The notes under the pieces: generated by a model | Told to the model about the DNA's origin: nothing | Databases searched by the model: none | Seen by the model: only the letters and a program-made list of their open reading frames with translations | Position numbers and translations under genes: made by a program | Part shown: piece after piece, positions 19,031 to 60,000 of the stretch | Numbering within the stretch: the stretch's first letter is position 1 | Layout: the number at the start of each line of letters is the position of its first letter | NCBI GenBank assembly: GCA_964016885.1 | Contig: OZ024743.1 | Coordinates: 86,428,001 to 86,492,000 of the forward strand | Source: Eledone cirrhosa | Lineage: Eukaryota | Direction: 5' to 3' | DNA length: 64,000 bases

Positions 19031-19266
19031 GTTAAAAAGTTAAAAAAAAGTTTAAAAAATGTACATCCACATATGTATACTGAAATACTAGTATGCATAT
19101 GATTACACACACGTATACATATGTAGATGTACCGAGTTTTTCACTGGTCACTTTACTGTGAGTGTCCAGCTATTCTGTATGTAAACACACAGACAAACCG
19201 GTTTTTAGAGTCATACTGGTTTTTTAGGAAACACCTTTCCTCTATTCTCCAGAAAGCCAGACAAGG

Positions 19267-19311
19267 AATATTGAACTAGTTTCGATGTTGTTACATCTCA
19301 TCAGCAATATT
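19267..19311 (-). ncRNA. Minimal type I hammerhead ribozyme
   Basis: aatattg-CTGATGA-gatgt aaca acatc-GAAAC TA GTT-caatatt; palindromic stem III ACTAGT. Confidence 0.85.
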
Positions 19312-19733
19312 TACCTATCTTCCGGCCTCTCTAGAGAATCGTAAAAGCACATATCGTTATATGCTTTTTCTATGAAAATTAGTAGTGGGCAGACTAATTT
19401 GCATAGAGCGTGAGTACGTACCGGTTCAACGGAGACGATAAAAACAAATAACGAAACGAAATTAAATTTCGTTTCGTTTGTAACTCACTTTTGTATGACT
19501 GACGCTTAAACAATTAAGTTAAAAAATGTACATCCACATATGTATACTGAAATACTAGTATGCATATGATTACACACACGTATACATATGTAGATGTACC
19601 GAGTTTTTCACTGGTCACTTTACTGTGAGTGTCCAGCTATTCTGTATGTAAACACACAGACAAACCGGTTTTTAGAGTCATACTGGTTTTTTAGGAAACA
19701 CCTTTCCTCTATTCTCCAGAAAGCCAGACAAGG

Positions 19734-19778
19734 AATATTGAACTAGTTTCGATGTTGTTACATCTCATCAGCAATATT
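19734..19778 (-). ncRNA. Minimal type I hammerhead ribozyme (second copy)
   Basis: Identical to 19267-19311. Confidence 0.85.
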
Positions 19779-19943
19779 TACCTATCTTCCGGCCTCTCTA
19801 GAGAATCGTAAAAGCACATATCGTTATATGCTTTTTCTATGAAAATTAGTAGTGGGCAGACTAATTTGCATAGAGCGTGAGTACGTACCGGTTCAACGGA
19901 GACGATAAAAACAAATAACGAAACGAAATTAAATTTCGTTTCG

Positions 19944-20023
<80 letters not shown>

Positions 20024-34292: not shown

Positions 34293-34899
34293 CAACGCCC
34301 TGAGCTTATGACATGGTCTGACTCGATAAAAAAAATCTTTGATTTTTTATTTGACACTCCCTTGGGAAGGCAGTATGTTGTGGACATACTACATAAAATA
34401 TGACGAACTAATAAGTCGTATATAGGTCAAGACTACTTCCAGTTGAGGTGCAATGTTGTGGATTTGTGGCTAGATTTACCATGTCCTACTTATAAGGCTT
34501 GGAAAAGAAAGTAGAAAGGTAATGTCAGAACTGGAGAATAGAGAATAGGGAACTGGAAAAGTTTCATTATAGATATGGCAAAAACATTTAAGTAAAAAAA
34601 AAAAAAAACAGCACTGAGAGCAAAGAGCAACCCCTCATCAAGGAGAAAACATTATAATTCCCTGAATGATGGAAGTGGTTACAACAGCATCATGATTCTG
34701 GTAATAGGAGTGTGGATAATGAGGGAAATTGTGTTACAGCGTGGAGCATCAGACTCGTTGCAAGGAGTGATAATGTCGGAAGGTTTCCGAAATTGTACAG
34801 ATCTTGAGTATATACAGATCTATTTATCTATCTATCTACCTGACGCGTGGAACATCGCTGGTAAGCTTTTTTGTAAATTTCTATACAAAAAACTGAACT

Positions 34900-37428
34900 A
34901 AGTGTTTGAAAAAAAATATCATTTTGTAGATTAACCCCCAAGCTGAATTGTCAGCTGGGTGGTAATCCCATTTTTCGTCCCTTTAGGGGCGAACATTTTA
35001 TTTTAAAATTGTTTTAAAAAATCAAATTTTGCCGACTATAACACATGAATAACCCGGAAAGAACACCGGAGAACGTTAACAGAGAGAAGAGAGGTAGTAA
35101 GGCAGATATTAAGGTTGTATCTGCTTCTGCCACTTTGGGCGTCGTCAGAGATACGACTGTCAACAAGGAAAAAAGAATATTGCCAATTGAACATTTAAAA
35201 ATTTCTACCGTCGAAGCGGAGAAAAATAACACACAACAGTAATTAAACCTATTAATATACATACACATGAAACAGCCAACAACAAAAACTCCATAGATAC
35301 ATCTACAGATAAAATTTCACCTCGTCAAGAAATTGCGATTTCCAACACCGAGGCTAACAACGATAACAACAACAACAACACCACAAAAAAAAATGTCTTT
35401 CACTGAAACAGTGAACAAAAAACAAAATTTTATAAATCTTGACATCTCCAATGCAAGAGATGTGCTCCAGCAAGGGAGAACATTTGTAATTTTCGAAGAC
35501 AAGGGTGGGTTTAGAATCAACTCACCCCTCGAAATAAAACAAGAGACAGTTCGAAGTACAGTGACCTTCAGGACTGTCTCAAACACAACGAGAAAGCCAA
35601 TATTTGTGAGTCAAGGAGACATAGAAGCCACTTTGAAGGAGACTCTAGAAAATATTGACTTTCTTCAACGAGGAAAACAGTACGGAAGTATTTCTGTACT
35701 GTTTAAAAGCGAAGCACTCGCCCCAAAACATTCTGTGACACCAATGGTGTCAAAAGCATTCACCTTTTTCCCTACGTACATGGGAAAAAGGACACAAAAA
35801 ATAAAAATAAAAAAATATACCACCAAACATTAACATCTGGTGGATCTTGGCTGGCTTCGTAGAGCCAGAGACTGATGCTATTCTTTCAATACGAAAGTCT
35901 ATTAGACAAAGGTGGGCGGGTACTGATTTGGAGATTCTGATGCAAATGAAACCGGAGAGAGTCTCCAAAATACCCGAAAAAGTCGTCATCGACGACAACA
36001 ACAAAATAGACATTTCGGTGGAGGGGCGTAAACTTCATTGCTTTCGCTGTGGTAGCACAACACACCTAAAGGCCTCCTGTCCTTCACAAACACACCACAA
36101 CAACATCATTAAAAAAACACTATTACCAACACCAACACCAAAACAACCACCACCACAAGTACAACAGACGAAACGAGCAAACACACCAAAACAAACAGCC
36201 ACTCAACCAACAACAACAGAAAAAACACACACAACACCCCTGAAGAACACAGCCCCACCCCATCCCACTCTAACAAACACTACCACAAACACGCACACTG
36301 AAACACAACCACCACACAACATACCCCTACCCCACACCCCTGACGATGATTATTCATTAACAGATGAGGCTGCTTCTCCTTCTTTAAGTGAAGAAGGAGA
36401 GCCTCGGAAATCTAAAAAACAAAAAATAGAGACACAACAAAACTCCAATCACCAACACCAACACACAACCACAGACACAAACAACAACACAAACAACACC
36501 ACAGTCAAACATCCCCCTACCAGCAAAACCAACACCAACACCACCCCAAACACAAGCACCCACCATAAAAAGAAAACTCCCGGACGAACAACAAACTAAA
36601 ACAACACAACAAAAACACAAACAACAAGAGTTTGATGGAGGTCATCTCCCAAAACCCCAAGGTGGAGACGGAGGGCAAAACTTTCGTCAAAGCAGAATCG
36701 TCTCCACACCTAAAACTAATAAGGGTTTCGATAGAAACCTATCAGAAATTGAAAGAACAATTTTCGCAAGATGTTGGCAACCCCTGTCAAAAACCTATTA
36801 ACCGCGTCTTATTAAAATGTTTCCCCACCCCACCTAACACCCCCACCAGAACTGAAATGGAGATTGAACAACCCGATCTCCAGTAAACGAAAAGGTAAGT
36901 GCACCTTTCGTCCTTTTCGCCAATTCTTCTCCACCAACATGGCTGACTTACGAGTTGGAAGCGTGAATGTGCGTGGCCTAGGGATGCCCTGGAAACAGGG
37001 CCAACTTTTAAACGACCTTAGGTCACACAGTATGGATGTGATAGCAATCACCGAGTCCAGGATTCACAACAGGCAGTAACTAACCGCCATCTTCGACGAC
37101 TTTGAGATCTACGCATCTCTCTGTCAGCCAGGAGGAGGAGGAGTGGCTGTCATGTTTCGGAAGAACCTGGACGTCGAAGTACAGCAAGTACACTTGGACC
37201 CGGAGGGTAGACTGGTAGTCCTAGACGTGAACAGTATTTGAGGTGGAGCTTTCAGACTGGTGGCCGTTTATGCCCCGACCGGGCAATCACAATCACGGCC
37301 AGACTTCTTTAAGCGTCTAGAGTCTTTTCTGGGAACGTCTCGCTCCTTACTTTTAGTGGGGGACTGGAATGGTATCCTAGATGCACGATGGAACTATGTG
37401 GGAGCATGTCCCAGTAGAGAGGGGTGCA
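34900..37428 (+). mobile_element. Tx1/L1-type LINE 5' part: gag-like ORF1 and start of ORF2 endonuclease
   Basis: CFRCGSTTHLKASC zinc knuckle; MADLRVGSVNVRGL..DVIAITES; GRLVVLDV, FRLVAVYAP, LVGDWN; broken at 37429. Confidence 0.85.
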
Positions 37429-38942
37429 ACGATAATTAAAAATATAAATTAAAGCGTAAATAATACCTCCATAACTATATAACACACGTACAGATCCAAA
37501 GATATGTTTCACCAATAATTTGTTGAAAGAAATGGGTTAGTCTCTGTTCATCAGCGTGTGTAAGGCTATATATTTCAGACAACACTAAGAGAATTTTAAA
37601 ATTGACTGTCCAGCTACACGTGGGAGAGAGTAGTCACAGCGTGTTTAAGGGCAGTGAACCAGTGGCCTCTGAGATACGAACTGCTAGAAAGGGCAGCCCA
37701 AAGCCACTCAGAGAAGTGTGCTCAACCAAACAGAGATAGGAAAGACTGTTATTAGGAGCCAAATATCACGATAAATTAACGGAGGCATAGGCCCTCGCTA
37801 TTCCCTGTAAATAATGTGCTCAAAGGAGAAGAGATCCTGAGCTCTTTCAAATACAATATGTTGAGAAGGTAACACACCAGAGAGAGATATACAGTGCGTT
37901 ATCAATAATACAGGGAATAGCGAGGGCCTATGCCTCCGTTAATTTATCGTGATATTTCGCTCCTAATAACAGTCTTTCCTATCTCTGTTTGGTTGAGCAC
38001 ACTTCTCTGAGTGGCTTTGGGCTGCCCTTTCTAGCAGTTTGTCCCTCAGAGGCCACTGGTTCACTGCCCTTAAACACGCTGTGTCTTCTCTCTCCCACGT
38101 GTAGCTGGACAGTCAATTTTAAAATTCTCTTAGTGTTGTCTGAAATGTATAGCCTTACACACGCTGATGAACCGAGACTAACCCATTTCTTTCAACAAAT
38201 TATTGGTGAAACATATCTTTGGATTTGTACGTGTGTTATATAGTTATAGAGGTATTTATTTACGCTTTAATTTATATTTTTAATTATCGTGTCTATAGTC
38301 TGCCTTTCATAGGTTATAGATTCCATACACTGGTGGTTTTTTCCCCTGTATTATTGATAACGCACTGTATATCTCTCTCTGGTGTGTTACCTTTTCAACA
38401 TATTGTATTTTAAAGAGCTCAGGATCTCTTCTCCTTTGAGCACATTATTTACAGGGAATAGCGAGGGCCTATGCCTCCGTTAATTTATCGTGATATTTGG
38501 CTCCTAATAACAGTCTTTCCATCTCTGTTTGGTTGAGCACACTTCTCTGAGTGGCTTTGGGCTGCCCTTTCTAGCAGTTCGTCCCTTAGAGGCCACTGGT
38601 TCACTGCCCTTAAACACGCTGTGACTTCTCTCTCCCACGTGTTGTCTGAAATGTATAGCCTTACACACGCTGATGAACCGAGACTACCCATTTCTTTCAA
38701 CAAATTATTGGTGAAACATATCTTTGGATTTGTACGTGTGTTATATAGTTATAGAGGTATTTATTTACGCTTTAATTTATATTTTTAATTATCGTGTCTA
38801 TAGTCTGCCTTTCATAGGTTATAGATTCCATACACTGGTGGTTTTTTCCTTTGTATTATTGATAACGCACTGTATATCTCTTCTCCTTTGAGCACATTAT
38901 TTACAGGGAATAGCGAGGGCCTATGCCTCCGTTAATTTATCG

Positions 38943-38943
<1 letters not shown>
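37429..38943. repeat. Inverted + tandem array of a ~540-bp non-coding unit with three hammerheads
   Basis: Marker acagggaatagcgagggcc at 37910, 38451, 38903; inverted copy 37429-37905; HHR at 37482-37561(-), 38157-38236(+), 38663-38741(+). Confidence 0.9.
38157..38236 (+). ncRNA. Type I hammerhead ribozyme
   Basis: acacacg-CTGATGA-accga..ttggt-GAAACA..T GTA-cgtgtgt (7-bp stem I). Confidence 0.85.
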
Positions 38944-38974
<31 letters not shown>

Positions 38975-38975
<1 letters not shown>

Positions 38976-41900
38976 GGAAAATTTGAACAGGAACAAAACA
39001 GAGAGGCAGTACAACGAATGTTTATTAATTTCACGCTCTGGAGAGTGGGGTGGTGGTGGGGAACGACGTTTCGGGCATAAGCCCTTCTTCAGATGAAAAG
39101 TGTGTGGGAAGAGAGTTCAAAGAGTGTGTAGGGGAGTGGTGGAGAGACATATAGCGAAAAGGGGGTGGGAGGAAACGGTGCGAATGAAATTAAAAATAAA
39201 AGCATGATCAAAATAAAATAAAATTAAAATGGGGTAAAACAGGTGGTGGAAGGATGTGGGGTGTGTAGGGGTGGTGGAGAGTGGAGTGGGGAGACGGGGT
39301 GTCCGAGCGGGGAGGGCTGAAGGTGGTGTGTGTGTGTAGGTGTACGTGTGTGTGTGTATGTGAAAGCAAGGGTTGGGGGAAGAACGGGGTTGCATGTTCA
39401 GGAAGAGGTGTGTGTGGGGTGGGGTGTGGGTCGGAGTGTGTGTGCGTCTGTGGATAGAGGGGTGGGGGGAGAGGAATCCGGAGGCTGAAGGTGTAAATAT
39501 GTGGTGGAAAGCACGTGTGTGGGGTTTAAGCGTGTTGTGGGTGTAGGTGGCGTGTGGGAAAACAAATTTTTTTTGGGTGTGTGTGTGAGTTATAAAGGTG
39601 ATTCCGTAAGAAGATGTGGTTGAAAGGTTGGTAAACTCCTAGGATGGTAGTTGATTCCGCGGTCAAGCTCCACATACGAGTAATCCATGGAGAGATGGTC
39701 GGAAGAGGAGAGATGTGGGGTGCGCGCGCAACAGGAAGTGGTCAAGGCGGTAGGAGTGCTGTGTGTGCTGGGAGGTGGTCAGAGGGCATAGCAGCAGACG
39801 GGTGGAATGGTAAAGGGGCGAGGATGGGTAGGTGTAAAAGTTGGAGTGAGGAGGGTGTGTGTGTGTATTAGTAGAGGTGTTAGTGGCATGAGTAAGTGTG
39901 GAGAAAGGGTGTGGGTGGAGCGGGGAGAGAAGGTTGTGGGGGTCGATGGAGAGAGTGTGGTGTACTGGTGTGTGTGTAGTTTGATGAAGGGGGTGTTAGT
40001 GGGTGTTAGTATACGGGAGGTGGAGAAAGGGTTGAATGCAGGTGTGAGTGGGGGTTAGTGGTGGTAGGGTGTGTAGAGTTGGTGGTGTACGAGGGTGTGG
40101 GTACGTGTGCGTGGGGTTGGGGGGTATTAGTGATGTTAGTTGTGTGTGGGGTGGGTGGGTAAGTGGGTGCGTGTGTTCGTGTGCTTGGGGTCAGGGGGTG
40201 TTAGTGATGTTAGTTGCGGGGTGGTGGGATGGATGTGTGGGGGTGAGGGTTAGTGGTGGTAGTAGGGTGTGTGTTTAGTGTGAGCGCGTGTATATATGTG
40301 CCGGTGGGTGTGTGCGTGTGATAAGGAGGGGGGGGGGGGTAGAAGAAGGGAGGGATGTTAGTATGTTAGTTGGGGAAGGGTGGTCGGATGAGGGGTGGAG
40401 TGGAGGTGTTAGTATTGTTAGTTGTGGGGTAGGCGGTGAAAAGGAGGGGTGTGTTAGTGGTGTTAGTGGGGGATATGTGTGGGGGAGGGGGGCGGCCGAA
40501 GGCTAAAGGAATAAGGGTGGGGAGTTCAGGCCGGGGGGAGTGTGGGTCTGTAAGATGAATATGGTTCTTTGTTCAACTCTGAGGAGATTGGCGGGTGTTC
40601 CGTGGCATTGGAGTAGGCCACAGACTGTGAGATGGCGTGCGGAATGTCCAGGGGCACCAAAGTGGCGGGCGATGGGGGAACTACCACCGAGACGAATATC
40701 CCGGAGGTGCTCAGTGAATCGGTCCGCCAGGCGACGTCCCGTCTGTCCGACGTAAGTCGCGCTGCACTCCGTGCAGCGAAGTCCGTAGACTAGGTTGGAG
40801 GAGGTGCATCGGAAGGCATGCCGGACCGAGAGAGAGTGGCCGTTGGGACCCTGGAAGGTGGTGGTGTTGGTGATGTGGGGACAGGTGTTGCAGCGGGGCC
40901 TAAAACAGGGAAAGAAACCGGGGGGGGGGGAGCGTGGGTTGGGGGGTAGGGAGCTGTGGACGAGGAGAGTGCGGAGATTGCGTGCGCGTTTGAAGGAGGG
41001 GAGTGGTGGGGTTGGGAAGATGTGGGAGGTGGAGGGGTCGGACTGGAGGCGGCGGATGGTGCTGTGGAGGAGTGGTAGGTGATGGGGAAGGGGAGACGGT
41101 GTGTGGTGGCGTGGGGTGAGGGTGGTGGAGCGGTGGACAGCACGGGCGCGGGTGAGAGCGGTGTGGACGAGAGAGGGGGGTAACCTCTGCGGATGAAATG
41201 GCTGACTAGGGAAAGGGCCTGGGACTCGAAGTCAGCATCTCAGCTACAGAGGCGGCGGATCCTGAGGAGTTGGGAGTAGGGAATAGAGTGTTTAGTGTGT
41301 GTGGGGTGGGAAGAGGTGAAGTCGAGGTAAGAGTGGGAGTCGGTTGTTTTGAAAAAGGCGGAGGTGACGAGGGAGTGGTGGGAGGGGTCGAAGGCGATAG
41401 AGATGTCTAAGAAGTGGACGCGGGTGGTGGAGATAGAGGTGGTGAAGTGGAGGGAGGGGTGGAAGGAGCAGAAGAAGGAGAGAAAGGAGTCGAGCTGTTC
41501 TCGGGTGAGGGTCGTGGCTCCGATACAGTCGTCGATGTAACGACCGTACAGTTCGGGCGTGGGGCCGGTGTACTGGGCAAAGATTTGGGCCTCAACATGG
41601 CCAACGAAAAGGTTGGCATAGTTCGGGCCCTTTCTTGTACCCATGGCTACCCCCGTGACCTGTTGGTAAAACTCACCCGAGAAGGAGAAACAATTGAGGG
41701 TGAGGACCAGCTCGGCGAGCCGAAGGAGGGTGGGGTAGAGGGAATGGGGGAGGGGCGAAGGTCGAGGTAGTGTTTGAGGGCGCGTAGGCCGTCGGCGTGG
41801 GGGATGACGGTATAGAGGGACTTGATGTCTAGGGTGAAGAGGAAGGGCTGTGGGCCGGGTGGGTAGGTGAAGGAGTCGAAAAGGCGCAGGGCGTGGTTGG

Positions 41901-43600
41901 TGTCGGAGATGTGGGAGGGGAGGGTGGTGACAAGGGGGGCGAGGATGGAGTCGAGAAAGGTGGAGATGAGTTCGGTGAGGCAGTTGCAAGCGGAGACGTT
42001 GGGGCGACCGGGGTTGTCGGGTTTGTGGAGTTTGGGGAGGAAGTAGATGGTGGGGGTGCGGGGGGTGCGGACGATGAGGTGGGAAGCGGTGGGGGAGGAG
42101 GGAGGAGGAGACAAGGTGTTGGATGGTGGAGGAAACTTGTTGTTGGTAGAGGGGTGTGGGATCGGAGGGTAGAGGGCGGTAGAAGAGGGGGTTACAGAGC
42201 TACCTGAGGGCTTCGGCCGTGTAGAGGTCCGCGCGTCACACCACCACAGCGCCTCCCTTGTCCGCCGGTTTGATGACGATATCATCTCGGCTACGGAGGG
42301 AGCGGAGAGCGAGGAGTTCGCCCCGTGAGATATTATTCCGTTTGGAACGGTGGCGGAAGTCGAAACGATTTACGGCGCTACGGCTGGCATCGACGAACGC
42401 GTCCAGGGTGCTAAATTGCCCTGGGGCCGGCGTCCAAGAAGATGGTCGTCGGCCCAGGGCGAGAAACGGGTCTGGGGCGTCCGGAGCCGGTGGCGTTCGG
42501 CTGAAATGTGCCTGTAGCTTCGTGCATCGCACGAATCGCTCGACTTCCGTTCGGGTGCGGAACTCGTCGCTGTGCGGAGTGTGGGGTATGAAGCGAAGGC
42601 CTCTACTAAGGAGTGAGCGCTCAGGTGCGGAGAGGGGGAGGTCAGGGGGTATGGTGACAACAAGTGGTGGGGTTTGGGTGTGTGGGGGGAAGGGAGGGTG
42701 TGGTGAGGTGGAGGGTGGAGATTGGGTAGGGGTGTGGGTCGAGGGAGGGGTGGAGAGTGGTGGGCTCATGGGGATGGGCGGGTGGTGGTGGATGGGGGTG
42801 GTTGGGAGGAGTGAGTGTAGCTTGCGGGCTTTGGTGGAGCTGAGGAAGGAGAAGAGGTTGTGGTTGAGGTTTTGGATGAAGGAGAGGGTGGCTTGGGCGA
42901 GGAGGGGGTGGCAGGTGGACTTAAGGCGGAGGAGGGGGTGGCAGGTGGACTTAAGGCGGAGGAGGGTGGGGGTCAGTTGGTGGTCAAGTTGGCGGAGGGT
43001 GGAACGGGAGGCGCGGATGGAGTTGCGCATCTGGAGGCATGAGGATCGGGTGAGGATACGTTGCGTGGAGGGGGAAGGGTGGAAGTGTAGACGGAAGCCG
43101 GGGGGGATAAGGTGGAGGCGGAGCCAGTGGCTGAGGAAATGTATGTGGCTGGAGTGCCGGGTTTTGGCGAAGAGAAGGTAGGAGAGTTGAAGGGCGGAGG
43201 GGAGATAGCAGGGGAGGGGGGGGTAGTTTGAGGCTAGTATGTAGTTGTTGGAGACAGGATCTCTGGCTGGGCATGGTGGGCGTTGGGTGAAAGCATGGGG
43301 AGGGATGAGAAAGCAGGTGTGTGAAGCGGGGTGGAGTGAACGAAGGAGTGCGTGCGAAGGATAGGCAGAGACGGGGAAGGGAAAATGAAACAGAAAAACG
43401 TAAGGAGTGGAGAGTATACACAGGAAAATTAAAGACAAAAAAATCATAAAGGTAAAAACACAGGCAATCGTGAACAAAAAATCATAGAAATAAAATCGTA
43501 AGAACACAGGCAAAAAATCATATACGGAAATAAACAAGTACAGTAACAAAATCAAACAAAGGTAATGCGTGCAAGGAAAGACCAAGTGTGGGAAGGTGTG
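38975..43600 (-). mobile_element. Near full-length GC-rich Penelope-like element (Neptune-type), frameshifted
   Basis: LLSRGLRFIP, IVIKPADKGGAVVV, YFLPKLHK, LDIKSLYTVIPH, GVAMGT, RYIDD, FLDISI, CTSSNLVYGLRCTECSATYVGQTGRRLADRFTEH; stop ~40504; long 3' UTR. Confidence 0.93.
39065..39092 (-). ncRNA. Hammerhead core at the PLE 3' end
   Basis: CTGAAGA-A-GGGC TTAT GCCC-GAAAC GTC; stem I poorly paired. Confidence 0.75.
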
Positions 43601-45000: not shown

Positions 45001-45089
45001 ACAAAAGCAGTTGGTCAAATAATTCGCTAAGAAATTAATAGAAATCAAGAGAAATGAAACTGGTGTTAACTAAAATCAATGGTGATAGA

Positions 45090-48000
45090 ATCTATCAGAT
45101 AGAATGTACCAGATAGAGTGAACCAGATAGAGAGTAACTGGTAGAATGTACCTGATAGAATGTACCAGATAGAGTTAAATTGGTAGTGTGTACCAGATGG
45201 AGTGTAACTGGTAGAGTGTAGCAGATATAGTGGAACTGGTAGAGTGTAGCAGGTAGAGTATACCAGATAGAGTGTAGCAGATTGAGTGTAACCGGTAGAG
45301 TATAGCAGATAGAGTGTACAAATTAGAGTATAACAGATAGAGTGTACCAGATAGAGTGTAACAGATAGTGTACCAGATAGAGTGTAACAGATAGTGTGTA
45401 CCAGATAGTGTAACAGATAGAGTGTAGCAGATAGTGTGTACCAGATAGTGTGTAACAGATAGAGTGTAGCAGATAGTGTAACAGATAGTGTACCAGATAG
45501 AGTGTAACAGATAGAGTATAGCAGATAGTGTGTACCAGATAGAGTGTAGCAGATAGTGTACCAGATAGAGTGTAACAGATAGAGTGTAGCAGATAGAGTG
45601 TACCAGATAGTGTAACAGATAGAGTGTAACAGATAGAATGCAGCAGATAGAGTGTAGCAGATAGAGTGTACCAGATAGAGTGTACCAGATAGTGTAACAG
45701 ATAGAGTGTAGCAAATAGTGTGTAACAGATAGATTGTAACAGACAGAGTGTAGCAGATAGTGTGTAGCAGATAGTGTGTAACAGATAGAGTGTAACAGAT
45801 AGAGTGTAGCAGATAGAGTGTAACAGATAGAGTGTACCAGATAGAGTGTAGCAGATAGAGTGTAACAGATAGAGTGTACCAGATAGAGTATAGCAGATAG
45901 AGTGTAACAGATAGAGTATAGGAGATAGAGTGTAGCAGATAGAGTGTAACAGATAGAGTGTAGCAGATAGAGTGTAACAGATAGAGTATAGCAGATAGAG
46001 TATAACAGATAGAGTGTAACAGATAGAGTGTAGCGGATAAAGTGTAACAGATAGAGTGTAACAGATAGAGTATAACAGATAGAGTGTAGCAGATAGAGTG
46101 TAACAGATAGGGTGTAGCAGGTAGAGTGTAACAGATAGAGTGTAACAGATAGAGTGTAACAGATAGAGTGTAACAGATAGAGTGTAACAGATAGAGTGTA
46201 ACAGATAGAGTCTAGCAGATAGAGTGTAGCAGATAGAGTGTAACAGATAGAGTGTAGCAGGTAGAGTGTAGCAGATAGAGTGTAACAGATAGAGTGTAAC
46301 AGATAGAGTGTAACAGATAGAGTGTAACAGATAGAGTGTAGCACTTAGAGTGTAGCAGATAGTGCGTAACAGATAGAGTGTAGCAGATAGAGTGTAACAG
46401 ATAGAGTGTAACAGATAGAGTGTAACAGATAGAGTATAACAGATAGAGTGTAGCAGATAGAGTATAGCAGATAGAGTGTAACAGATAGAGAGTAACAGAT
46501 AGAGAGTAACAGATACAGTGTAACAGATAGAGTGTAACAGATAGAGTGTAGCAGATAGAGTGTAACAGATAGAGTGTAGCAGATAGAGTGTAGCAGATAG
46601 AGTGTAACAGATAGAGTGTAACAGATAGAGTGTAACAGATAGTGTGTAACAGATAGAGTATAGCAGATAGAGTGTAACAGATAGAGTGTAACAGATAGAG
46701 TATAGCAGATAGAGTGTAACAGATAGAGTGTAGCAGATAGAGTGTAGCAGATAGAGCGTAACAGATAGAGTGTAGCAGATAGAGTGTAACAGATATAGGG
46801 TAACAGATAGAGTATAGCAGATAGAGTGTAACAGATAGAGTGTAGCAGATAGAGTGTAACAGATAGAGTGTAACAGATAGAGTGTAACAGATAGAGTGTA
46901 ACAGATAGAGTGTAACAGATAGTGTGTAACAGATAGAGTATAGCAGATAGAGTGTAACAGATAAAGTGTAACAGATAGAGTATAGCAGATAGAGTGTAAC
47001 AGATAGAGTGTAGCAGATAGAGCGTAACAGATAGAGTGTAGCAGATAGAGTGTAACAGATATAGTGTAACAGATAGAGTATAGCAGATAGAGTGTAACAG
47101 ATAGAGTGTAGCAGATAGAGTGTAACAGATAGAGTGTAGCAGATAGAGTGTAACAGATAGAGTATAGCAGATAGAGTGTAACAGATAGGGTGTACCAGAT
47201 AGAGTGTACCAGATAGAGTGTAACAGATAGAGTGTAACAGATAGAGTGTAAAATATAGAGTATAGCGGATAGAGTGTAACAGATGGAGTGTAACAGATAG
47301 AGAGTAACAGATACAGTGTAACAGATAGAGTGTAACAGATAGAGTGTAGCAGATAGAGGATAACAGATAGAGTGTAGCAGATAGAGTGTACCAGATAGAG
47401 TGTTACAGATAGAGTGTAACAGATAGAGTGTAACAGATAGTGTGTAACAGATAGAGTGTAGCAGATAGAGTATAGCAGATAGAGTGTAACAGATAGAGTG
47501 TAACAGATAGAGTGTAACAGATAGAGTGTAACAGATGGAGTGTAACAGATAGAGTATAGCAGATAGAGTGTAACAGATAGAGAGTAACAGATAGAGAGTA
47601 ACAGATACAGTGTAACAGATAGAGTGTAGCAGATAGAGGATAACAGATAGAGTGTACCAGATAGAGTGTAACAGATAGAGTGCAACAGATAGAGTGCAAC
47701 AGATAGAGTGTAACAGATGGAGTGTAGCAGATAGAGTATAGCAGATAGAGTGTAACAGATAGAGTGTAACAGATAGAGTGTAACAGATAGAGTGTAACAG
47801 ATACAGAGTAACAGATAGAGTGTAGCAGATAGAGTGTAATAGATAGAGTGTAACAGATAGAGTGTAGCAGATAGAGTATAGCAGATAGAGTGTAGCAGAT
47901 AGAGTGTAACAGATAGAGTGTACCAGATAGAGTGTAACAGATAGAGTGTAACAGATAGAGTGTACCAGATAGAGTATAGCAGATAGAGAGTAACAGATAG

Positions 48001-51000
48001 AGAGTAACAGATAGAGTGTAGCAGATAGAGTGTAAGAGATAGTGTGTAACAGATAGAGTGTAGCAGATAGAGTATAGCAGATAGAGTGTAACAGATAGAG
48101 TGTAACATATAGAGTGTAACAGATAGAGAGTAACAGCTAGCGTGTAACAGATAGAGTGTAGCAGATAGAGTGTAGCAGATAGAGTGTAATAGATATAGTG
48201 TAGCAGATAGAGTGTAACAGATAGAGTGTAACAGATAGAGTGTAACAGATAGAGTGTAATAGATAGAGTGTAACAGATAGAGTGTACCAGATAGAGTGTA
48301 ACAGATAGAGTGTACCAGATAGAGTGTAGCAGATAGAGTGTAACAGATAGAGTGTAACAGATAGAGTGTAGCAGATAGAGTGTAAGAGATAGTGTGTAAC
48401 AGATAGAGTGTAGCAGATAAAGTATAGCAGATAGAGTGTAACAGATAGAGTGTAACATATAGAGTGTAACAGATAGAGAGTAACAGCTAGCGTGTAACAG
48501 ATAGTGTGTAGCAGATAGAGTGTAGCAGATAGAGTGTAATAGATAGAGTGTAATAGATATAGTGTAGCAGATAGAGTGTAACAGATAGAGTGTAACAGAT
48601 AGAGTGTAATAGATAGAGTGTAACAGATAGAGTGTACCAGATAGAGTGTAACAGATAGAGTGTACCAGATAGAGTGTAGCAGATAGAATGTAGCAGATAG
48701 AGTATAACAGATAGAGTGTACCAGATAGAGTGTAAGAGATAGTGTGTAACAGATAGAGTGTAGCAGATAGAGTATAGCAGATAGAGTGTAATAGATAGAG
48801 TGTAATAGATATAGTGTAGCAGATAGAGTGTAACAGATAGAGTGTAACAGATAGAGTGTAACAGATAGAGTGTAATAGATAGAGTGTAACAGATAGAGTG
48901 TACCAGATAGAGTGTAACAGATAGAGTGTACCAGATAGAGTGTAACAGATAGAGTGTAGCAGATAGAGTGTAGCAGATAGAGCGTAACAGATAGAGTGTA
49001 GCAGATAGAGTGTAACAGATATAGGGTAACAGATAGAGTATAGCAGATAGAGTGTAACAGATAGAGTGTAGCAGATAGAGTGTAACAGATAGAGTGTAAC
49101 AGATAGAGTGTAACAGATAGAGTGTAACAGATAGAGTGTAACAGATAGTGTGTAACAGATAGAGTATAGCAGATAGAGTGTAACAGATAAAGTGTAACAG
49201 ATAGAGTATAGCAGATAGAGTGTAACAGATAGAGTGTAGCAGATAGAGCGTAACAGATAGAGTGTAGCAGATAGAGTGTAACAGATATAGTGTAACAGAT
49301 AGAGTATAGCAGATAGAGTGTAACAGATAGAGTGTAGCAGATAGAGTGTAACAGATAGAGTGTAGCAGATAGAGTGTAACAGATAGAGTATAGCAGATAG
49401 AGTGTAACAGATAGGGTGTACCAGATAGAGTGTACCAGATAGAGTGTAACAGATAGAGTGTAACAGATAGAGTGTAAAATATAGAGTATAGCGGATAGAG
49501 TGTAACAGATGGAGTGTAACAGATAGAGAGTAACAGATACAGTGTAACAGATAGAGTGTAACAGATAGAGTGTAGCAGATAGAGGATAACAGATAGAGTG
49601 TAGCAGATAGAGTGTACCAGATAGAGTGTTACAGATAGAGTGTAACAGATAGAGTGTAACAGATAGTGTGTAACAGATAGAGTGTAGCAGATAGAGTATA
49701 GCAGATAGAGTGTAACAGATAGAGTGTAACAGATAGAGTGTAACAGATAGAGTGTAACAGATGGAGTGTAACAGATAGAGTATAGCAGATAGAGTGTAAC
49801 AGATAGAGAGTAACAGATAGAGAGTAACAGATACAGTGTAACAGATAGAGTGTAGCAGATAGAGGATAACAGATAGAGTGTACCAGATAGAGTGTAACAG
49901 ATAGAGTGCAACAGATAGAGTGCAACAGATAGAGTGTAACAGATGGAGTGTAGCAGATAGAGTATAGCAGATAGAGTGTAACAGATAGAGTGTAACAGAT
50001 AGAGTGTAACAGATAGAGTGTAACAGATACAGAGTAACAGATAGAGTGTAGCAGATAGAGTGTAATAGATAGAGTGTAACAGATAGAGTGTAGCAGATAG
50101 AGTATAGCAGATAGAGTGTAGCAGATAGAGTGTAACAGATAGAGTGTACCAGATAGAGTGTAACAGATAGAGTGTAACAGATAGAGTGTACCAGATAGAG
50201 TATAGCAGATAGAGAGTAACAGATAGAGAGTAACAGATAGAGTGTAGCAGATAGAGTGTAAGAGATAGTGTGTAACAGATAGAGTGTAGCAGATAGAGTA
50301 TAGCAGATAGAGTGTAACAGATAGAGTGTAACATATAGAGTGTAACAGATAGAGAGTAACAGCTAGCGTGTAACAGATAGAGTGTAGCAGATAGAGTGTA
50401 GCAGATAGAGTGTAATAGATATAGTGTAGCAGATAGAGTGTAACAGATAGAGTGTAACAGATAGAGTGTAACAGATAGAGTGTAATAGATAGAGTGTAAC
50501 AGATAGAGTGTACCAGATAGAGTGTAACAGATAGAGTGTACCAGATAGAGTGTAGCAGATAGAGTGTAACAGATAGAGTGTAACAGATAGAGTGTAGCAG
50601 ATAGAGTGTAAGAGATAGTGTGTAACAGATAGAGTGTAGCAGATAAAGTATAGCAGATAGAGTGTAACAGATAGAGTGTAACATATAGAGTGTAACAGAT
50701 AGAGAGTAACAGCTAGCGTGTAACAGATAGTGTGTAGCAGATAGAGTGTAGCAGATAGAGTGTAATAGATAGAGTGTAATAGATATAGTGTAGCAGATAG
50801 AGTGTAACAGATAGAGTGTAACAGATAGAGTGTAATAGATAGAGTGTAACAGATAGAGTGTACCAGATAGAGTGTAACAGATAGAGTGTACCAGATAGAG
50901 TGTAGCAGATAGAATGTAGCAGATAGAGTATAACAGATAGAGTGTACCAGATAGAGTGTAAGAGATAGTGTGTAACAGATAGAGTGTAGCAGATAGAGTA

Positions 51001-54000
51001 TAGCAGATAGAGTGTAATAGATAGAGTGTAATAGATATAGTGTAGCAGATAGAGTGTAACAGATAGAGTGTAACAGATAGAGTGTAACAGATAGAGTGTA
51101 ATAGATAGAGTGTAACAGATAGAGTGTACCAGATAGAGTGTAACAGATAGAGTGTACCAGATAGAGTGTAGCAGATAGAGTGTAGCAGATAGAGTATAAC
51201 AGATAGAGTGTACCAGATAGAGTGTAACAGATAGAGTGTAACAGATAGAGTGTAACAGATAGAGTGTAACAGATAGTGTGTAACAGATAGAGTATAGCAG
51301 ATAGAGTGTAACAGATAGAGTGTAACAGATAGAGTATAGCAGATAGAGTGTAACAGATAGAGTGTAGCAGATAGAGTGTAGCAGATAGAGCGTAACAGAT
51401 AGAGTGTAGCAGATAGAGTGTAACAGATATAATGTAACAGATAGAGTATAGCAGATAGAGTGTAACAGATAGAGTGTAGCAGATAGAGTGTAACAGATAG
51501 AGTATAGCAGATAGAGTGTAACAGATAGGGTGTACCAGATAGAGTGTACCAGATACAGTGTAACAGATAGAGTGTAAAATATAGAGTATAGCGGATAGAG
51601 TGTAACAGATGGAGTGTAACAGATACAGTGTAACAGATACAGTGTAACAGATAGAGTGTAGCAGATAGAGGATAACAGATAGAGTGTAGCAGATAGAGTG
51701 TACCAGATAGAGTGTAACAGATAGAGTGAAACAGATAGTGTGTAACAGATAGAGTGTAGCAGATAGAGTGTAGCAGATAGAGTGTAACAGATAGAGTGTA
51801 ACAGATAGAGTGTAACAGATAGAGTGTAACAGATAGAGTGTAACAGATAGAGTGTAACAGATAGAGTATAGCAGATAGAGTGTAACAGATAGAGAGTAAC
51901 AGATAGAGAGTAACAGATACAGTGTAAGAGATAGAGTGTAGCAGATAGAGGATAACAGATAGAGTGTAACAGATAGAGTGCAACAGATAGAGTGCAACAG
52001 ATAGAGTGTAACAGATGGAGTGTAGCAGATAGAGTGTAACAGATAGAGTGTAACAGATAGAGTGTAACAGATAGAGTGTAACAGATACAGAGTAACAGAT
52101 AGAGTGTAATAGATAGAGTGTAGCAGATAGAGTGTAATAGATAGAGTGTAACAGATAGAGTGTAGCAGATAGAGTATAGCAGATAGAGTGTAGCAGATAG
52201 AGTGTAACAGATAGAGTGTACCAGATAGAGTGTAACAGATAGAGTGTAACAGATAGAGTGTAGCAGATAGTGTGTAACAGATAGAGTGTAGCAGATAGAG
52301 TATAGCAGATAGAGTGTAACAGATAGAGTGTAACATATAGAGTGTAACAGATAGAGAGTAACAGCTAGCGTATAACAGATAGAGTGTAGCAGATAGAGTG
52401 TAGCAGATAGAGTGTAACAGATAGAGTGTACCAGATAGAGTGTAACAGATAGAGTGTAACAGATAGAGTGTACCAGATAGAGTGTAGCAGATAGAGTGTA
52501 ACAGATAGAGTGTAACAGATAGAGTGTAACAGATAGAGTGTAAGAGATAGTGTGTAACAGATAGAGTGTAGCAGATAGAGTATAGCAGATAGAGTGTAAC
52601 AGATAGAGTGTAATAGATATAGTGTAGCAGATAGAGTGTAACAGATAGAGTGTAACAGATAGAGTGTAACAGATAGGGTGTAACAGATGGAGTGTAACAG
52701 ATACAGTGTAACAGATACAGTGTAACAGATAGAGTGTAGCAGATAGAGGATAACAGATAGAGTGTAGCAGATAGAGTGTACCAGATAGAGTGTAACAGAT
52801 AGTGTGTAACAGATAGAGTGTAGCAGATAGAGTGTAGCAGATAGAGTGTAACAGATAGAGTGTAACAGATAGAGTGTAACAGATAGAGTGTAACAGATAG
52901 AGTGTAACAGATAGAGTGTAACAGATAGAGTATAGCAGATAGAGTGTAACAGATAGAGAGTAACAGAGAGAGAGTAACAGATACAGTGTAAGAGATAGAG
53001 TGTAGCAGATAGAGGATAACAGATAGAGTGTAACAGATAGAGTGCAACAGATAGAGTGCAACAGATAGAGTGTAACAGATGGAGTGTAGCAGATAGAGTA
53101 TAGCAGATAGAGTGTAACAGATAGAGTGTAACAGATAGAGTGTAACAGATACAGAGTAACAGATAGAGTGTAACAGATAGAGTGTAGCAGATAGAGTGTA
53201 ATAGATAGAGTGTAACAGATAGAGTGTAGCAGATAGAGTATAGCAGATAGAGTGTAGCAGATAGAGTGTAACAGATAGAGTGTACCAGATAGAGTGTAAC
53301 AGATAGAGTGTAACAGATAGAGTGTAACAGATAGAGTGTACCAGATAGAGTATAGCAGATAGAGTGTAACAGATAGAGTGTAGCAGGTAGAGTGTAACAG
53401 ATAGAGTGTAGCAGATAGAGTGTAACAGATAGAGTGTAGCAGATAGAGTGTAACAGATAGAGTGTAGCAGATAGAGTGTAACAGATAGAGTGTAGCAGAT
53501 AGAGTATAACAGATAGTGTACCAGATAGAGTGTAGCAGAGAGTGTGTAACAGATAGAGTGATACCAGATAGTGTAGCAGATAGAGTGTAGCAGATAGAGT
53601 GTAACAGATAGAGTGTAGCAGATAGAGTGTAGCAGATAGAGTGTTGCAGATAGAGTGTAGCAGATAGAGTGTAACAGATAGAGTATAGGAGATAGAGTAT
53701 AGCAGATAGAGTGTAACAGATATAGTGTAACAAATAGAGTATAGCAGATAGAGTGTAGCAGATAGAGTGTAACAGATAGAGTATAGCAGATAGAGTATAA
53801 CAGATAGAGTGTAACAGATAGAGTGTAGCAGATAGAGTGTAACAGATAGAGTGTAACAGATAGAGTATAACAGATAGAGTGTAGCAGATAGAGTGTAACA
53901 GATAGAGTGTAGCTGGTAGAGTGTAACAGATAGAGTGTAACAGATAGAGTGTAGCAGATAGAGGATAACAGATGGAGTGTAGCAGATAGAGTGTACCAGA

Positions 54001-57000
54001 TAGAGTGTAACAGATAGAGTGTAACAGATAGAGTGTAACAGATAGTGTGTAACAGATAGAGTGTAGCAGATAGAGTATAGCAGATAGAGTGTAACAGATA
54101 GAGTGTAACAGATAGAGTGTAACAGATAGAGTGTAACAGATAGAGTGTAACAGATAGAGTGTAACAGATAGAGTATAGCAGATAGAGTGTAACAGATAGA
54201 GAGTAACAGATAGAGAGTAACAGATACAGTGTAACAGATACAGTGTAACAGATAGAGTGTAGCAGATAGAGGATAACAGATAGAGTGTACCAGATAGAGT
54301 GTAACAGATAGAGTGCAACAGATAGAGTGCAACAGATAGAGTGTAACAGATGGAGTGTAGCAGATAGAGTATAGCAGATAGAGTGTAACAGATAGAGTGT
54401 AACAGATAGAGTGTAACAGATAGAGTGTAACAGATACAGAGTAACAGATAGAGTGTAACAGATAGAGTGTAGCAGATAGAGTGTAATAGATAGAGTGTAA
54501 CAGATAGAGTGTAGCAGATAGAGTATAGCAGATAGAGTGTAGCAGATAGAGTGTAACAGATAGAGTGTACCAGATAGAGTGTAACAGATAGAGTGTAACA
54601 GATAGAGTGTAACAGATAGAGTGTACCAGATAGAGTATAGCAGATAGAGAGTAACAGATAGAGAGTAACAGATACAGTGTTACAGATAGAGCGTAACAGA
54701 TAGAGTGTAGCAGATAGAGTGTAGCAGATAGAGTGTAATAGATATAGTGTAGCAGATAGAGTGGAACAGATAGAGTGTAACAGATAGAGTGTAATAGATA
54801 GAGTGTAACAGATAGAGTGTACCAGATAGAGTGTAACAGATAGAGTGTACCAGATAGAGTGTAGCAGATAGAGTGTAACAGATAGAGTGTAACAGATAGA
54901 GTGTAGCAGATAGAGTGTAAGAGATAGTGTGTAACAGATAGAGTGTAGCAGATAGAGTGTAACAGATAGAGTGTAACATATAGAGTGAAACAGATAGAGA
55001 GTAACAGCTAGCGTGTAACAGATAGAGTGTAGCAGATAGAGTGTAATAGATAGAGTGTAATAGATATAGTGTAGCAGATAGTGTGTAACAGATAGAGTGT
55101 AACAGATAGAGTGTAACAGATAGAGTGTAATAGATAGAGTGTAACAGATAGAGTGTACCAGATAGAGTGTAACAGATAGAGTGTACCAGATAGAGTGTAG
55201 CAGATAGAGTGTAGTAGATAGAGTATAACAGATAGAGTGTACCAGATAGAGTGTAACAGATAGAGTGTAACAGATAGAGTGTAACAGATAGAGTGTAACA
55301 GATAGTGTGTAACAGATAGAGTGTAGCAGATAGAGTGTAGCAGATAGAGTGTAACAGATAGAGTGTAGCAGATAGAGTGTAACAGATAGAGTATAGCAGA
55401 TAGAGTGTAACAGATAGAGTGTAACAGATAGAGTGTAGCAGATAGAGTGTAACAGATAGAGTATAGCAGATAGAGTATAACAGATAGAGTGTAACAGATA
55501 GAGTGTAGCGGATAGAGTGTAACAGATAGAGTGTAACAGATAGAGTATAACAGATAGAGTGTAGCAGATAGAGTGTAGCAGATAGAGTGTAACAGATAGA
55601 GTGTAACAGATATAGTGTAACAGATACAGTATAGCAGATAGAGTGTAACAGATAGAGTGTAGCAGATAGAGTGTAACAGATAAAGTATAACAGATAGAGT
55701 GTAACAGATAGAGTGTAGCAGATAGAGTGTAGCAGATAGAGTGTTGCAGATAGAGTGTAGCAGATAGAGTGTAACAGATTGAGTATAGGAGATAGAGTAT
55801 AGCAGATAGAGTGTAACAGATAGAGTGTAACAGATATAGTGTAACAGATAGAGTGTAACAGATAGAGTATAGCAGATAGAGTAAAACAGATAGAGTGTAG
55901 CAGACAGAGTGTAACAGATAGAGTGTAACAGATAGAGTATAACAGATAGAGTGTAGCAGATAGAGTGTTACAGATAGAGTGTAGCTGGTAGAGTGTAACA
56001 GATAGAGTGTAGCAGATAGAGTGTAGCAGATAGAGTGTAACAGATAGAGTGTAACAGATAGTGTGTAACAGATAGAGTGTAGCAGATAGAGTATAGCAGA
56101 TAGAGTGTAACAGATAGAGTGTAACAGATAGAGTGTAACAGATAGAGTGTAACAGATAGAGTGTAACAGATAGAGTATAGCAGATAGAGTGTAACAGATA
56201 GAGAGTAACAGATAGAGAGTAACAGATACAGTGTAACAGATAGAGTGTAGCAGATAGAGGATAACAGATAGAGTGTACCAGATAGAGTGTAACAGATAGA
56301 GTGCAACAGATAGAGTGCAACAGATAGAGTGTAACAGATGGAGTGTAGCAGATAGAGTATAGCAGATAGAGTATAGCAGATAGAGTGTAACAGATAGAGT
56401 GTAACAGATAGAGTGTAACAGATAGAGTGTAACAGATACAGAGTAACAGATAGAGTGTAACAGATAGAGTGTAGCAGATAGAGTGTAACAGATAGAGTGT
56501 AGCAGATAGCGTATAGCAGATAGAGTGTAGCAGATAGAGTGTAACAGATAGAGTGTACCAGATAGAGTGTAACAGATAGAGTGTAACAGATAGAGTGTAA
56601 CAGATAGAGTGTACCAGATAGAGTATAGCAGATAGAGAGTAACAGATAGAGAGTAACAGATACAGTGTAACAGATAGAGTGTAGCAGATAGAGTGTAGCA
56701 GATAGAGTGTAATAGATATAGTGTAGCAGATAGAGTGTAACAGATAGAGTATAGCAGATAGAGTGTAACAGATAGAGTGTAACAGATAGAGTGTAATAGA
56801 TAGAGTGTAACAGATAGAGTGTACCAGATAGAGTGTAACAGATAGAGTGTACCAGATAGAGTGTAGCAGATAGAGTGTAGCAGATAGAGTATAACAGATA
56901 GAGTGTACCAGATAGAGTGTAACAGATAGAGTGTAACAGATAGAGTGTAACAGATAGAGTGTAACAGATAGAGTGTAACAGATAATGTGTAACAGATAGA

Positions 57001-60000
57001 GTGTAGCAGATAGAGTGTAGCAGATAGAGTGTAACAGATAGAGTGTAGCAGATAGAGTGTAACAGATAGAGTATAGCAGATAGAGTGTAACAGATAGAGT
57101 GTAACAGATAGAGTGTAACAGATAGAGTGTAGCAGATAGAGTGTAACAGATAGAGTATAGCAGATAGAGTATAACAGATAGAGTGTAACAGATAGAGTGT
57201 AGCGGATAGAGTGTAACAGATAGAGTGTAACAGATAGAATATAACAGATAGAGTGTAGCAGATAGAGTGTAACAGATAGAGTATAGGAGATAGAGTATAG
57301 CAGATAGAGTGTAACAGATAAAATATAACAGATAGAGTGTAGCAGATAGAGTGTTGCAGATAGAGTGTAGCAGATAGAGTGTAACAGATAGAGTATAGGA
57401 GATAGAGTGTAACAGATAGAGTGTAACAGATAGTGTAGCAGATAGAGTGTAGCAGATAGAGTGTAACAGATAGAGTGTAGCAGATAGAGTGTAACAGATA
57501 GAGTGTAACAGATAGAGTGTAACAGATAGAGTGTAACAGATAGAGTGTAACAGATAGAGTGTAACAGATAGAGTGTACCAGATAGAGTGTAACAGATAGA
57601 ATATAACAGATAGAGTGTAGCAGATAGAGTGTAACAGATAGAGTATAGGAGATAGAGTATAGCAGATAGAGTGTAACAGATAGAGTGTAACAGATAGAGT
57701 ATAGCAGATAGAGTGTAACAGATAGAGTGTAGCAGATAGAGTGTAACAGATAGAGTATAGCAGATAGAGTATAACAGATAGAGTGTAACAGATAGAGTGT
57801 AGCGGATAGAGTGTAACAGATAGAGTGTAGCGGATAGAGTGTAACAGATAGAGTGTAACAGATAGAGTATAACAGATTGAGTGTAGCAGATAGAGTGTAA
57901 CAGATAGAGTGTAACAGATAGAGTGTAGCAGATAGAGTGTAACAGATAGAGTGTAACAGATAGAGTGTAGCAGATAGAGTGTAAGAGATAGTGTGTAACA
58001 GATAGAGTGTAGCAGATAGAGTGTAACAGATAGAGTCTAACATATAGAGTGTAACAGATAGAGAGTAACAGCTAGCGTGTAACAGATAGAGTGTAGCAGA
58101 TAGAGTGTAGCAGATAGAGTGTAATAGATAGAGTGTAATAGATATAGTGTAGCAGATAGAGTGTAACAGATAGAGTGTAACAGATAGAGTGTAACAGATA
58201 GAGTGTAACAGATAGAGTGTACCAGATAGAGTGTAACAGATAGAGTGTAGCAGATAGAGTGTAGCAGATAGAGTATAACAGATAGAGTGTACCAGATAGA
58301 GTGTAACAGATAGAGTGTAACAGATAGAGTGTAACAGATAGAGTGTAACAGATAGTGTGTAACAGATAGAGTGTAGCAGATAGAGTGTAGCAGATAGAGT
58401 GTAACAGATAGAGTATAGCAGATAGAGTATAACAGATAGAGTGTAACAGATAGAGTGTAGCGGATAGAGTGTAACAGATAGAGTGTAACAGATAGAGTAT
58501 AACAGATAGAGTGTAGCAGATAGAGTGTAGCAGATAGAGTGTAACAGATAGAGTGTAACAGATATAGTGTAACAGATACAGTATAGCAGATAGAGTGTAA
58601 CAGATAGAGTGTAGCAGATAGAGTGTAACAGATAAAGTATAACAGATAGAGTGTAACAGATAGAGTGTAGCAGATAGAGTGTTGCAGATAGAGTGTAGCA
58701 GATAGAGTGTAACAGATAGAGTATAGGAGATAGAGTATAGCAGATAGAGTGTAACAGATAGAGTGTAACAGATATAGTGTAACAGATAGAGTGTAACAGA
58801 TAGAGTATAGCAGATAGAGTAAAACAGATAGAGTGTAGCAGACAGAGTGTAACAGATAGAGTGTAACAGATAGAGTATAACAGATAGAGTGTAGCAGATA
58901 GAGTGTTACAGATAGAGTGTAGCTGGTAGAGTGTAACAGATAGAGTGTAGCAGATAGAGGATAACAGATAGAGTGTAGCAGATAGAGTGTAACAGATAGA
59001 GTGTAACAGATAGTGTGTAACAGATAGAGTGTAGCAGATAGAGTATAGCAGATAGAGTGTAACAGATAGAGTGTAACAGATAGAGTGTAACAGATAGAGT
59101 GTAACAGATAGAGTGTAACAGATAGAGTATAGCAGATAGAGTGTAACAGATAGAGAGTAACAGATACAGTGTAACAGATAGAGTGTAGCAGATAGAGTGT
59201 ACCAGATAGAGTGTAACAGATAGAGTGCAACAGATAGAGTGCAACAGATAGAGTGTAACAGATGGAGTGTAGCAGATAGAGTATAGCAGATAGAGTATAG
59301 CAGATAGAGTGTAACAGATAGAGTGTAACAGATAGAGTGTAACAGATAGAGTGTAACAGATACAGAGTAACAGATAGAGTGTAACAGATAGAGTGTAGCA
59401 GATAGAGTGTAACAGATAGAGTGTAGCAGATAGCGTATAGCAGATAGAGTGTAGCAGATAGAGTGTAACAGATAGAGTGTACCAGATAGAGTGTAACAGA
59501 TAGAGTGTAACAGATAGAGTGTAACAGATAGAGTGTACCAGATAGAGTATAGCAGATAGAGAGTAACAGATAGAGAGTAACAGATACAGTGTAACAGATA
59601 GAGTGTAGCAGATAGAGTGTAGCAGATAGAGTGTAATAGATATAGTGTAGCAGATAGAGTGTAACAGATAGAGTATAGCAGATAGAGTGTAACAGATAGA
59701 GTGTAACAGATAGAGTGTAATAGATAGAGTGTAACAGATAGAGTGTACCAGATAGAGTGTAACAGATAGAGTGTACCAGATAGAGTGTAGCAGATAGAGT
59801 GTAGCAGATAGAGTATAACAGATAGAGTGTACCAGATAGAGTGTAACAGATAGAGTGTAACAGATAGAGTGTAACAGATAGAGTGTAACAGATAATGTGT
59901 AACAGATAGAGTGTAGCAGATAGAGTGTAGCAGATAGAGTGTAACAGATAGAGTGTAGCAGATAGAGTGTAACAGATAGAGTATAGCAGATAGAGTGTAA

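Follow-up and report, generated by a model that had tools for sequence, protein, structure and literature searches.

A 541-nt hammerhead retrozyme family in Eledone cirrhosa with insertion ends resembling those of Penelope-like elements

Animal non-LTR retrozymes are built of tandem units that lack an ORF and each carry one type I hammerhead; they have a low GC content (below 45-50%), occur in thousands of copies and co-exist with Penelope-like elements (PLEs) (Cervera & de la Pena 2020, PMC7229834). In Xenopus, Li, Clavereau & Pollet (2026, bioRxiv 10.64898/2026.07.22.740005) described co-occurrence and pLTR homology, left the mechanism open and reported cleavage in one of nine dimers tested. 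EN+ PLEs and the non-autonomous Chlamys/MRC1 (PMC8557442, PMC3846280) are described as having partial tandems, an inverted 5'-truncated copy and a bias towards microsatellites. The PLE "tail" is often found at one end only (Craig et al., PMC8557442), and non-autonomous head-to-tail copies have been described in Chlamydomonas (PMC8557442, PMC3846280). For Poseidon_Ac in vitro (Frangieh et al. 2024, PMC11167929), both strands of an AT-rich target are cut and extended, reverse transcription initiates within the RNA at two sites, between which the tail lies, and a dimer is predicted; ribozyme cleavage is dispensable in vitro, unprocessed RNA being the main substrate. Retrozyme mobility and the origin of the tandem and inverted ends of PLEs are called open in these sources (bioRxiv 10.64898/2026.07.22.740005, PMC8557442, PMC11167929). 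Here we describe an array in the cephalopod Eledone cirrhosa that is, by sequence criteria, an insertion of a non-LTR retrozyme with a predicted ribozyme. Any novelty of class implied by a first, sequence-only reading of this DNA is not supported: both the class and the PLE tail are already in print, and the 541-nt family is a further member.

The array lies in a stretch of 64,000 nucleotides (GCA_964016885.1, contig OZ024743.1, positions 86,428,001 to 86,492,000), called the window below, to which all coordinates refer (Table 1). It comprises a 487-bp inverted arm and approximately 1.9 tandem copies of a 541-bp ORF-less unit, whose length and numbering (u1-u541, set on window 37950-38490) come from the sequence and a self-comparison. 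The description of one inverted and about two tandem copies of ~540 bp was thus borne out (0.9 unit inverted, ~1.9 direct, unit 541), as were the absence of an ORF (stop-to-stop frames of up to 96 aa, Met frames of up to 32 aa), the internal deletions and a 3' end that abuts (TA)n, here (TA)15. Both deletions, of 34 nt and 52 nt, are in the third unit, where site B was lost with a deletion. The 34-nt deletion junction has one exact match genome-wide, so that this deletion probably dates from the insertion or later and has not been propagated; both deletions likely arose at this locus. The outer end of the inverted arm, u341, is non-canonical and joined to a LINE, and is not a B end. We saw no sign of a host function at the locus.

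Table 1. Features of the array and its flanks (window coordinates; u, position in the 541-nt unit;., no strand assigned)
Feature	Position	Strand	Remarks
LINE 5' part (ORF1 and ORF2 endonuclease start, with stops)	34818-37428	+	high-copy family
Inverted arm	37429-37915	-	u395-541 then u1-341; 487 nt, 0.9 unit
Type I hammerhead motif 1	37482-37561	-	core CTGATGA begins 37554; predicted cut between 37489 and 37488
Head-to-head junction	37909-37915	.	7-nt microhomology common to both arms
Direct arm	37909-38942	+	u501-541, full unit 37950-38490, third unit 38491-38942
Type I hammerhead motif 2	38157-38236	+	stem I 38157-38163/38230-38236; core 38164-38170
Motif 2, remaining parts	GAAAC 38208-38212; GUA 38227-38229	+	motif
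Site B, u454-463	38403-38412	+	second fixed 3' end of the family; internal in this array
Type I hammerhead motif 3	38663-38741	+	core 38670-38676; predicted cut after 38734
Site A terminus, u541	38932-38943	+	canonical end of the direct arm; commonest fixed 3' end in the family
(TA)15 target microsatellite	38944-38973	.	common to array and neighbouring PLE, tail-to-tail
Separate PLE: RT, Cys-rich linker, GIY-YIG	38975-43600	-	5' boundary approximate

Each of the three hammerhead motifs has a 7-bp stem I and a GUA site, in agreement with the sequence-only reading, and they are of type I topology, with stem I open; motif 1, in the inverted arm, carries a stem II mismatch (u224 C>A). Motifs 2 and 3 together are predicted to release a 505-nt monomer (38230-38734). 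A search of the window with Rfam at the gathering score gave 0 matches, and the hammerhead call is therefore based on motif, pairing and conservation. In a sister subfamily that is ~70% identical to the unit and has kept the ~540-nt length and both ends (29 loci), identity to the unit is 93.5% in the ribozyme core and 91.8% in stem I, compared with 71.5% elsewhere, the identity of the ribozyme 5' half being inflated because the seed copy of the subfamily was located through it. Pair counts over 44 ribozyme copies showed 89.8% of cells paired, with weak covariation (4 pairs changed on both sides, and also 4 in a slid control). The isolated ribozyme folds with a z of -0.39 and without a proper stem II; the circular unit gave an unremarkable z of -1.5, with 3 of 40 shuffles equally stable, and the linear fold z -2.2. 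Stems II and III are longer than in the small motifs of some PLEs of the same genome, and all 26 matches to a degenerate hammerhead pattern belong to the same lineage as the retrozyme unit. A 14-nt tandem duplication in ribozyme stem III marks a subfamily of ~10-17 loci (including L096, L098, L101, L102 and L149).

The unit has 2,711 candidate matches over many contigs of the 3.0-Gb genome. An exact 18-mer inside the ribozyme matches 962 times and an exact 17-mer upstream of both ends 1,590 times, with 0 matches for either reversed control; given these counts and the array self-matches down to E=0, the repeat is not due to chance. The first 100 matches of the 17-mer represent 68 insertions, which extrapolates to ~1,080 insertions with that exact word as a lower bound, and the family comprises well over a thousand genomic copies. 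We analyzed two position-ordered samples, both on one contig (C1). The first contained 84 insertions, after five duplicate loci were dropped and two matches known from the unit search were excluded; the second contained 68 insertions chosen by the 17-mer upstream of sites A and B, 28 of which were also in the first. With two further duplicates dropped, the union is 122 insertions. Contigs of runs X1, X2 and X4 (three of the four listed, of unrecorded kind) gave repeat-family coverage only, which has no bearing on expression.

These data place the family among the non-LTR retrozymes. The units are a few hundred base pairs long, tandem and equipped with a type I hammerhead, including two consecutive complete plus-strand motifs; they have no coding capacity, a low GC content (38.8%) and no LTR-bounded layout, and the dispersed, multi-copy family shows the polarity of retrotransposition. 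A plant LTR retrozyme, with type III hammerheads in LTRs, does not match the type I topology and the tandem units without an LTR pair. Compared with the retrozymes of PMC7229834, the repeat is longer (541 nt as opposed to 150-450 bp). Copies here mostly span 0.3-2 units, as tandem or inverted fragments without paired terminal repeats, and have inverted arms and two fixed ends, whereas the words "inverted" and "microsatellite" occur 0 times in the main text of that paper. Circles and cleavage were demonstrated experimentally there, whereas here cleavage is predicted and a circle is plausible. Same-breakpoint locus pairs (L160/L165, L297/L298, L187/L188 and L012/L013) suggest segmental duplication or a re-mobilized two-armed composite.

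Of the 134 outward 3' ends in the first sample, 63 are at site A (u541) and 52 at site B (u454-463), two sites ~82 nt apart; of these 115 canonical ends, 105 adjoin (TA)n. The 5' ends of the copies are scattered. Variable start points had been expected from the sequence, which is correct for the 5' ends but not for the 3' ends; similarly, the copies had been taken to be circularly permuted, but the apparent permutation reflects variable truncation on the 5' side combined with 3' ends fixed at two sites, rather than random starts. Head-to-head structures account for 75 of the 122 insertions in the union sample: 59 combine an A and a B end, 1 has A+A, 0 have B+B and 15 have at least one non-canonical end. 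When both ends are canonical, 59 of 60 two-armed insertions are therefore A+B, and the second sample gave 41 of 41 (binomial p 5e-13). Either end, A or B, can carry the long arm. Non-LTR retrozymes have target-site duplications of more than 4 bp where any are present; in these copies duplications are unreadable, the targets being (TA)n. Both ends adjoin short AT-like template bases, which could pair with (TA)n. The earlier proposal of a PLE-style inverted 5' end is thus upheld, in that the ends bear the two-site tail signature of PLEs.

Twin priming of the LINE type yields non-overlapping segments, the first cDNA ending at the internal primer. If acting on one linear retrozyme RNA, whether through the neighbouring LINE family or another LINE, it could explain 5' inversions with junction microhomology, and overlaps of at least 2 nt are present in 33 of the 75 head-to-head junctions. 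The A arm, however, extends >15 nt beyond site B in 52 of 59 A+B insertions, so that the two arms overlap on the unit, which largely refutes this explanation. Moreover, the ends lie inside a tandem unit, lack poly(A) and do not resemble the neighbouring LINE, and the contact of the array with a LINE fragment, which might be read in its favour, is a single truncation junction. We thus consider LINE-type twin priming hardly credible for this family.

The alleles carried by the arms point to a common source. Arms of the same insertion agreed in 1602 of 1675 diagnostic-site comparisons (95.6%), compared with 71.3% under the null (maximum 75.2% over 40 resamplings), and tandem units agreed in 2574 of 2656 (96.9%; null 79.1%). 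Rare variants were shared 10- to 14-fold above the null. The comparison covered 121 loci, including best-hit loci and one duplicate locus, with identity-matched arms of other loci as the null; it was matched on identity and not on time of activity, and the pairs are not independent. Agreement above this null indicates that both arms usually derive from one source. Furthermore, the predicted cleavage site is read through in 55 of the 115 arms, and 23 of the 115 are longer than a single unit, indicating that the template was often continuous. Reverse transcription of a circular or multimeric ~540-nt RNA, as first proposed, is thus supported with regard to a continuous RNA but not with regard to a circle specifically.

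A circular template is plausible, and a circle would account for both allele sharing and the constant unit length. The distribution of indels points the other way: only 2 of 30 indel rows covered by at least two units are present in all units, both from one event (L149). A deletion is present in two of three units in L292 and in three of four in L285, and the 14-nt insertion of the subfamily in one of two adjacent tandem units in L016. Indels that are seldom present in all units of an insertion argue against a single circular template, as do arrays that look duplicated at the DNA level, and some of the patterns fit linear multimers. Of the 5' ends between u200 and u360, 12 of 34 fall within u278-293, near the ribozyme 3' strands (scan-corrected p 0.003). 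Three of these 12 have TA-like or doubtful joints, two are at u280-281 and others lie upstream. We do not take this pile-up as proof of cleaved templates, since pausing of the RT at the ribozyme helices fits as well as run-off from cleaved RNA. Junction reads cannot tell a circle apart, because its junction sequence is that of a tandem genomic copy. We consider the odds about even between a ribozyme-made circle and an uncleaved tandem transcript as the template.

The best explanation of the whole, to which we assign a probability of roughly 0.8, is that the retrozyme RNA is copied into (TA)n in trans by the RT and GIY-YIG endonuclease of a PLE. A PLE enzyme, probably a dimer, would cut both strands of the palindromic (TA)n; cDNA synthesis would be primed at A by one target strand and at B by its counterpart. 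Both cDNAs would be copied from the continuous RNA of one source, circle or uncleaved tandem transcript, and the two truncated products would be joined at their 5' ends, head to head, often by microhomology. The copies have fixed A and B ends on (TA)n, random 5' truncation and overlapping, allele-matched A+B arms; from these features we infer the PLE enzyme, the cut in both strands, priming at A and B and the joining of the cDNAs. A+B pairing, overlapping arms and shared alleles fit two cDNAs from one source, one per target strand. Together with the single haplotype, pairing and overlap argue against twin priming on a single RNA and likewise against self-priming on an antisense template, as proposed in PMC3846280.

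In this respect the retrozyme would work like a non-autonomous PLE, with partial tandems and an inverted 5'-truncated copy (75 of 122 insertions), two internal 3' ends and a tail at one end. It differs from EN+ PLEs and Chlamys/MRC1 as described in PMC8557442 and PMC3846280 in having no ORF and a tail of ~82 nt instead of 30-40; also, we found no 3' end common to the retrozyme and an autonomous family among the PLEs sampled. Compared with Poseidon_Ac (PMC11167929), for which start sites are described as alike on both strands in vitro and not homologous to the target, the genomic copies here show near-strictly one site per arm, and A and B adjoin AT-like template bases.

A more specific and tentative version, which we hold to be somewhat less probable than its negation, has a 541-nt ribozyme-made circle copied by a Penelope dimer, with one start site per (TA)n strand and both RTs travelling round the same circle. 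If true, the inverted pLTR and one-end tail of all PLEs would be the join of two rolling-circle cDNAs, and the 541-nt family would be a genomic record of circRNA retrotransposition.

Irrespective of the template, the value of the family is a quantitative footprint of PLE-type two-site, two-strand priming on an ORF-less RNA with a predicted ribozyme. The constraints it provides can be counted: a two-armed insertion has one A end and one B end, its arms overlap, and they share one source haplotype. They predict how a PLE in vitro system should act on a linear or circular RNA of 541 nt. A search of mostly open-access literature found no paper on the 541-nt family or a count of A+B pairing; the family may already be catalogued.

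Pairing of this kind is not confined to the retrozyme. Another PLE-type family of the genome, linked to a GIY-YIG in L054, pairs a long end with a short end in 14 of 16 loci with an inverted match, these 16 coming from 20 loci selected for the long end. A PLE-type 3' end with a GUC hammerhead motif (L235-L254) has 2,013 candidates, and many of its copies are two-armed and very short (~200 bp), with a (TA)n tract on either side. An autonomous-type PLE family (L059-L088) has a hammerhead motif with a long stem II, a ~135-nt tail and 3' ends at either of two distances from GAAAC, ~72-81 or 190-213 nt downstream. At several loci (L009/L048, L049, L135, L140 and L202), the retrozyme or its sister is joined head-to-head to a different PLE-type family, with no (TA)n between. 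These junctions do not clearly follow the A+B rule and could reflect two RNAs primed in one event, or later insertion and deletion.

The same layout could be expected if the unit were the pLTR or 3' end of an autonomous PLE and the copies its 5'-truncated partial tandems, since a partial tandem, an inverted 5' copy and a tail at one end are the PLE layout (PMC8557442). PLEs abound in the genome (one GIY-YIG alone has 61,835 candidates), their diversity is partly sampled here, and u395-459 in L049 is preceded by a GIY-YIG of like orientation. However, arms that extend beyond u1 run into u541 of the preceding unit, up to 4.4 units in the longest, and never into coding DNA. No ORF-linked copy of the unit was found in 84 + 56 + 40 loci with flanks of 1.5-3 kb, and L049 is a chimera, since 19 further copies of that PLE have another continuation and do not match the unit. 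We therefore regard a pLTR origin as improbable. None of the copies examined forms the 3' end of a PLE ORF, which removes the refutation named by the sequence-only reading, in which all copies are attached to a PLE ORF with fixed ends and circular RNA is lacking.

The autonomous EN+ PLE layout, with RT and GIY-YIG ORF in cis, is absent from the unit and from the sampled copies. A search for an autonomous partner with the ends of the unit found none among the PLEs sampled, a small part of the PLE diversity of the genome, and none of 77 regions downstream of a GIY-YIG, which cover a similarly small part, contained a homologue of the unit; involvement of a PLE is thus argued from the structural signature. 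This differs from the Xenopus data in bioRxiv 10.64898/2026.07.22.740005, in that we found no pLTR homologue but a PLE signature in the insertion ends. Individual candidates were rejected. The PLE next to the array shows no similarity to the unit (best E 0.089), and 15 of 15 of its copies analyzed end independently on (TA)n. Among 30 loci of the L009-type PLE family there was no unit match except in L009 itself, the PLE of L049 falls with the chimera, and the PLEs of L187, L122, L140 and L169 are separate or opposite-strand neighbours.

Subsets of near-identical units in some long arrays (L006 and L164) suggest duplication at the DNA level. Such subsets, together with internal deletions between short repeats, would also be compatible with a foldback element or a minisatellite dispersed through recombination or fork switching, in which the hammerhead is incidental. 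The copies are nevertheless dispersed and inserted in (TA)n, their 3' ends being fixed and their 5' ends random, which is the polarity of reverse transcription, and the ribozyme core is conserved above background. A DNA-level repeat is thus a very unlikely explanation of the family, and copying by a PLE remains our preferred reading.

The LINE to the left, which looks L1/Tx1-like from its motifs, belongs to a family with 3,985 candidates in the genome; its fragments had no match in Pfam. It agrees with full-length copies from 34818 to 37430 and then ends, with a 2-nt microhomology to the array. The array had been thought to interrupt this LINE. Instead, the LINE is truncated at 37428-37430, and neither the downstream part of the window nor the following 10 kb, a satellite, contains its remaining ~3.2 kb. 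The microhomology favours a deletion, and the left end of the array and the 3' half of the LINE were likely lost by deletion at or after insertion. We do not favour u341 as a cryptic site A: the sequence is similar, but no other copy among those sampled ends there on (TA)n.

The PLE to the right is Neptune-like by the definition in PMC8557442, having a Cys-rich linker before the GIY-YIG. Its GIY-YIG domain matches PF01541 with E 0.0036, below Pfam's cutoff, its ORF is in pieces and it has a small hammerhead motif of its own near 39092. The 3' end has 1,881 candidate copies, the best 40 of which are 98-100% identical, indicating a young family. Two more GIY-YIG PLE fragments are present in the window, near 2808 (-) and 14644 (-). 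A 14-bp satellite with strong strand skew occupies 45084-64000, with >1,350 copies in the window, and continues for at least 10 kb beyond. At 19052-19945, a 467-bp unit is repeated 1.9 times with 100% identity and ends on (TA)n, and may be another PLE-type partial tandem.
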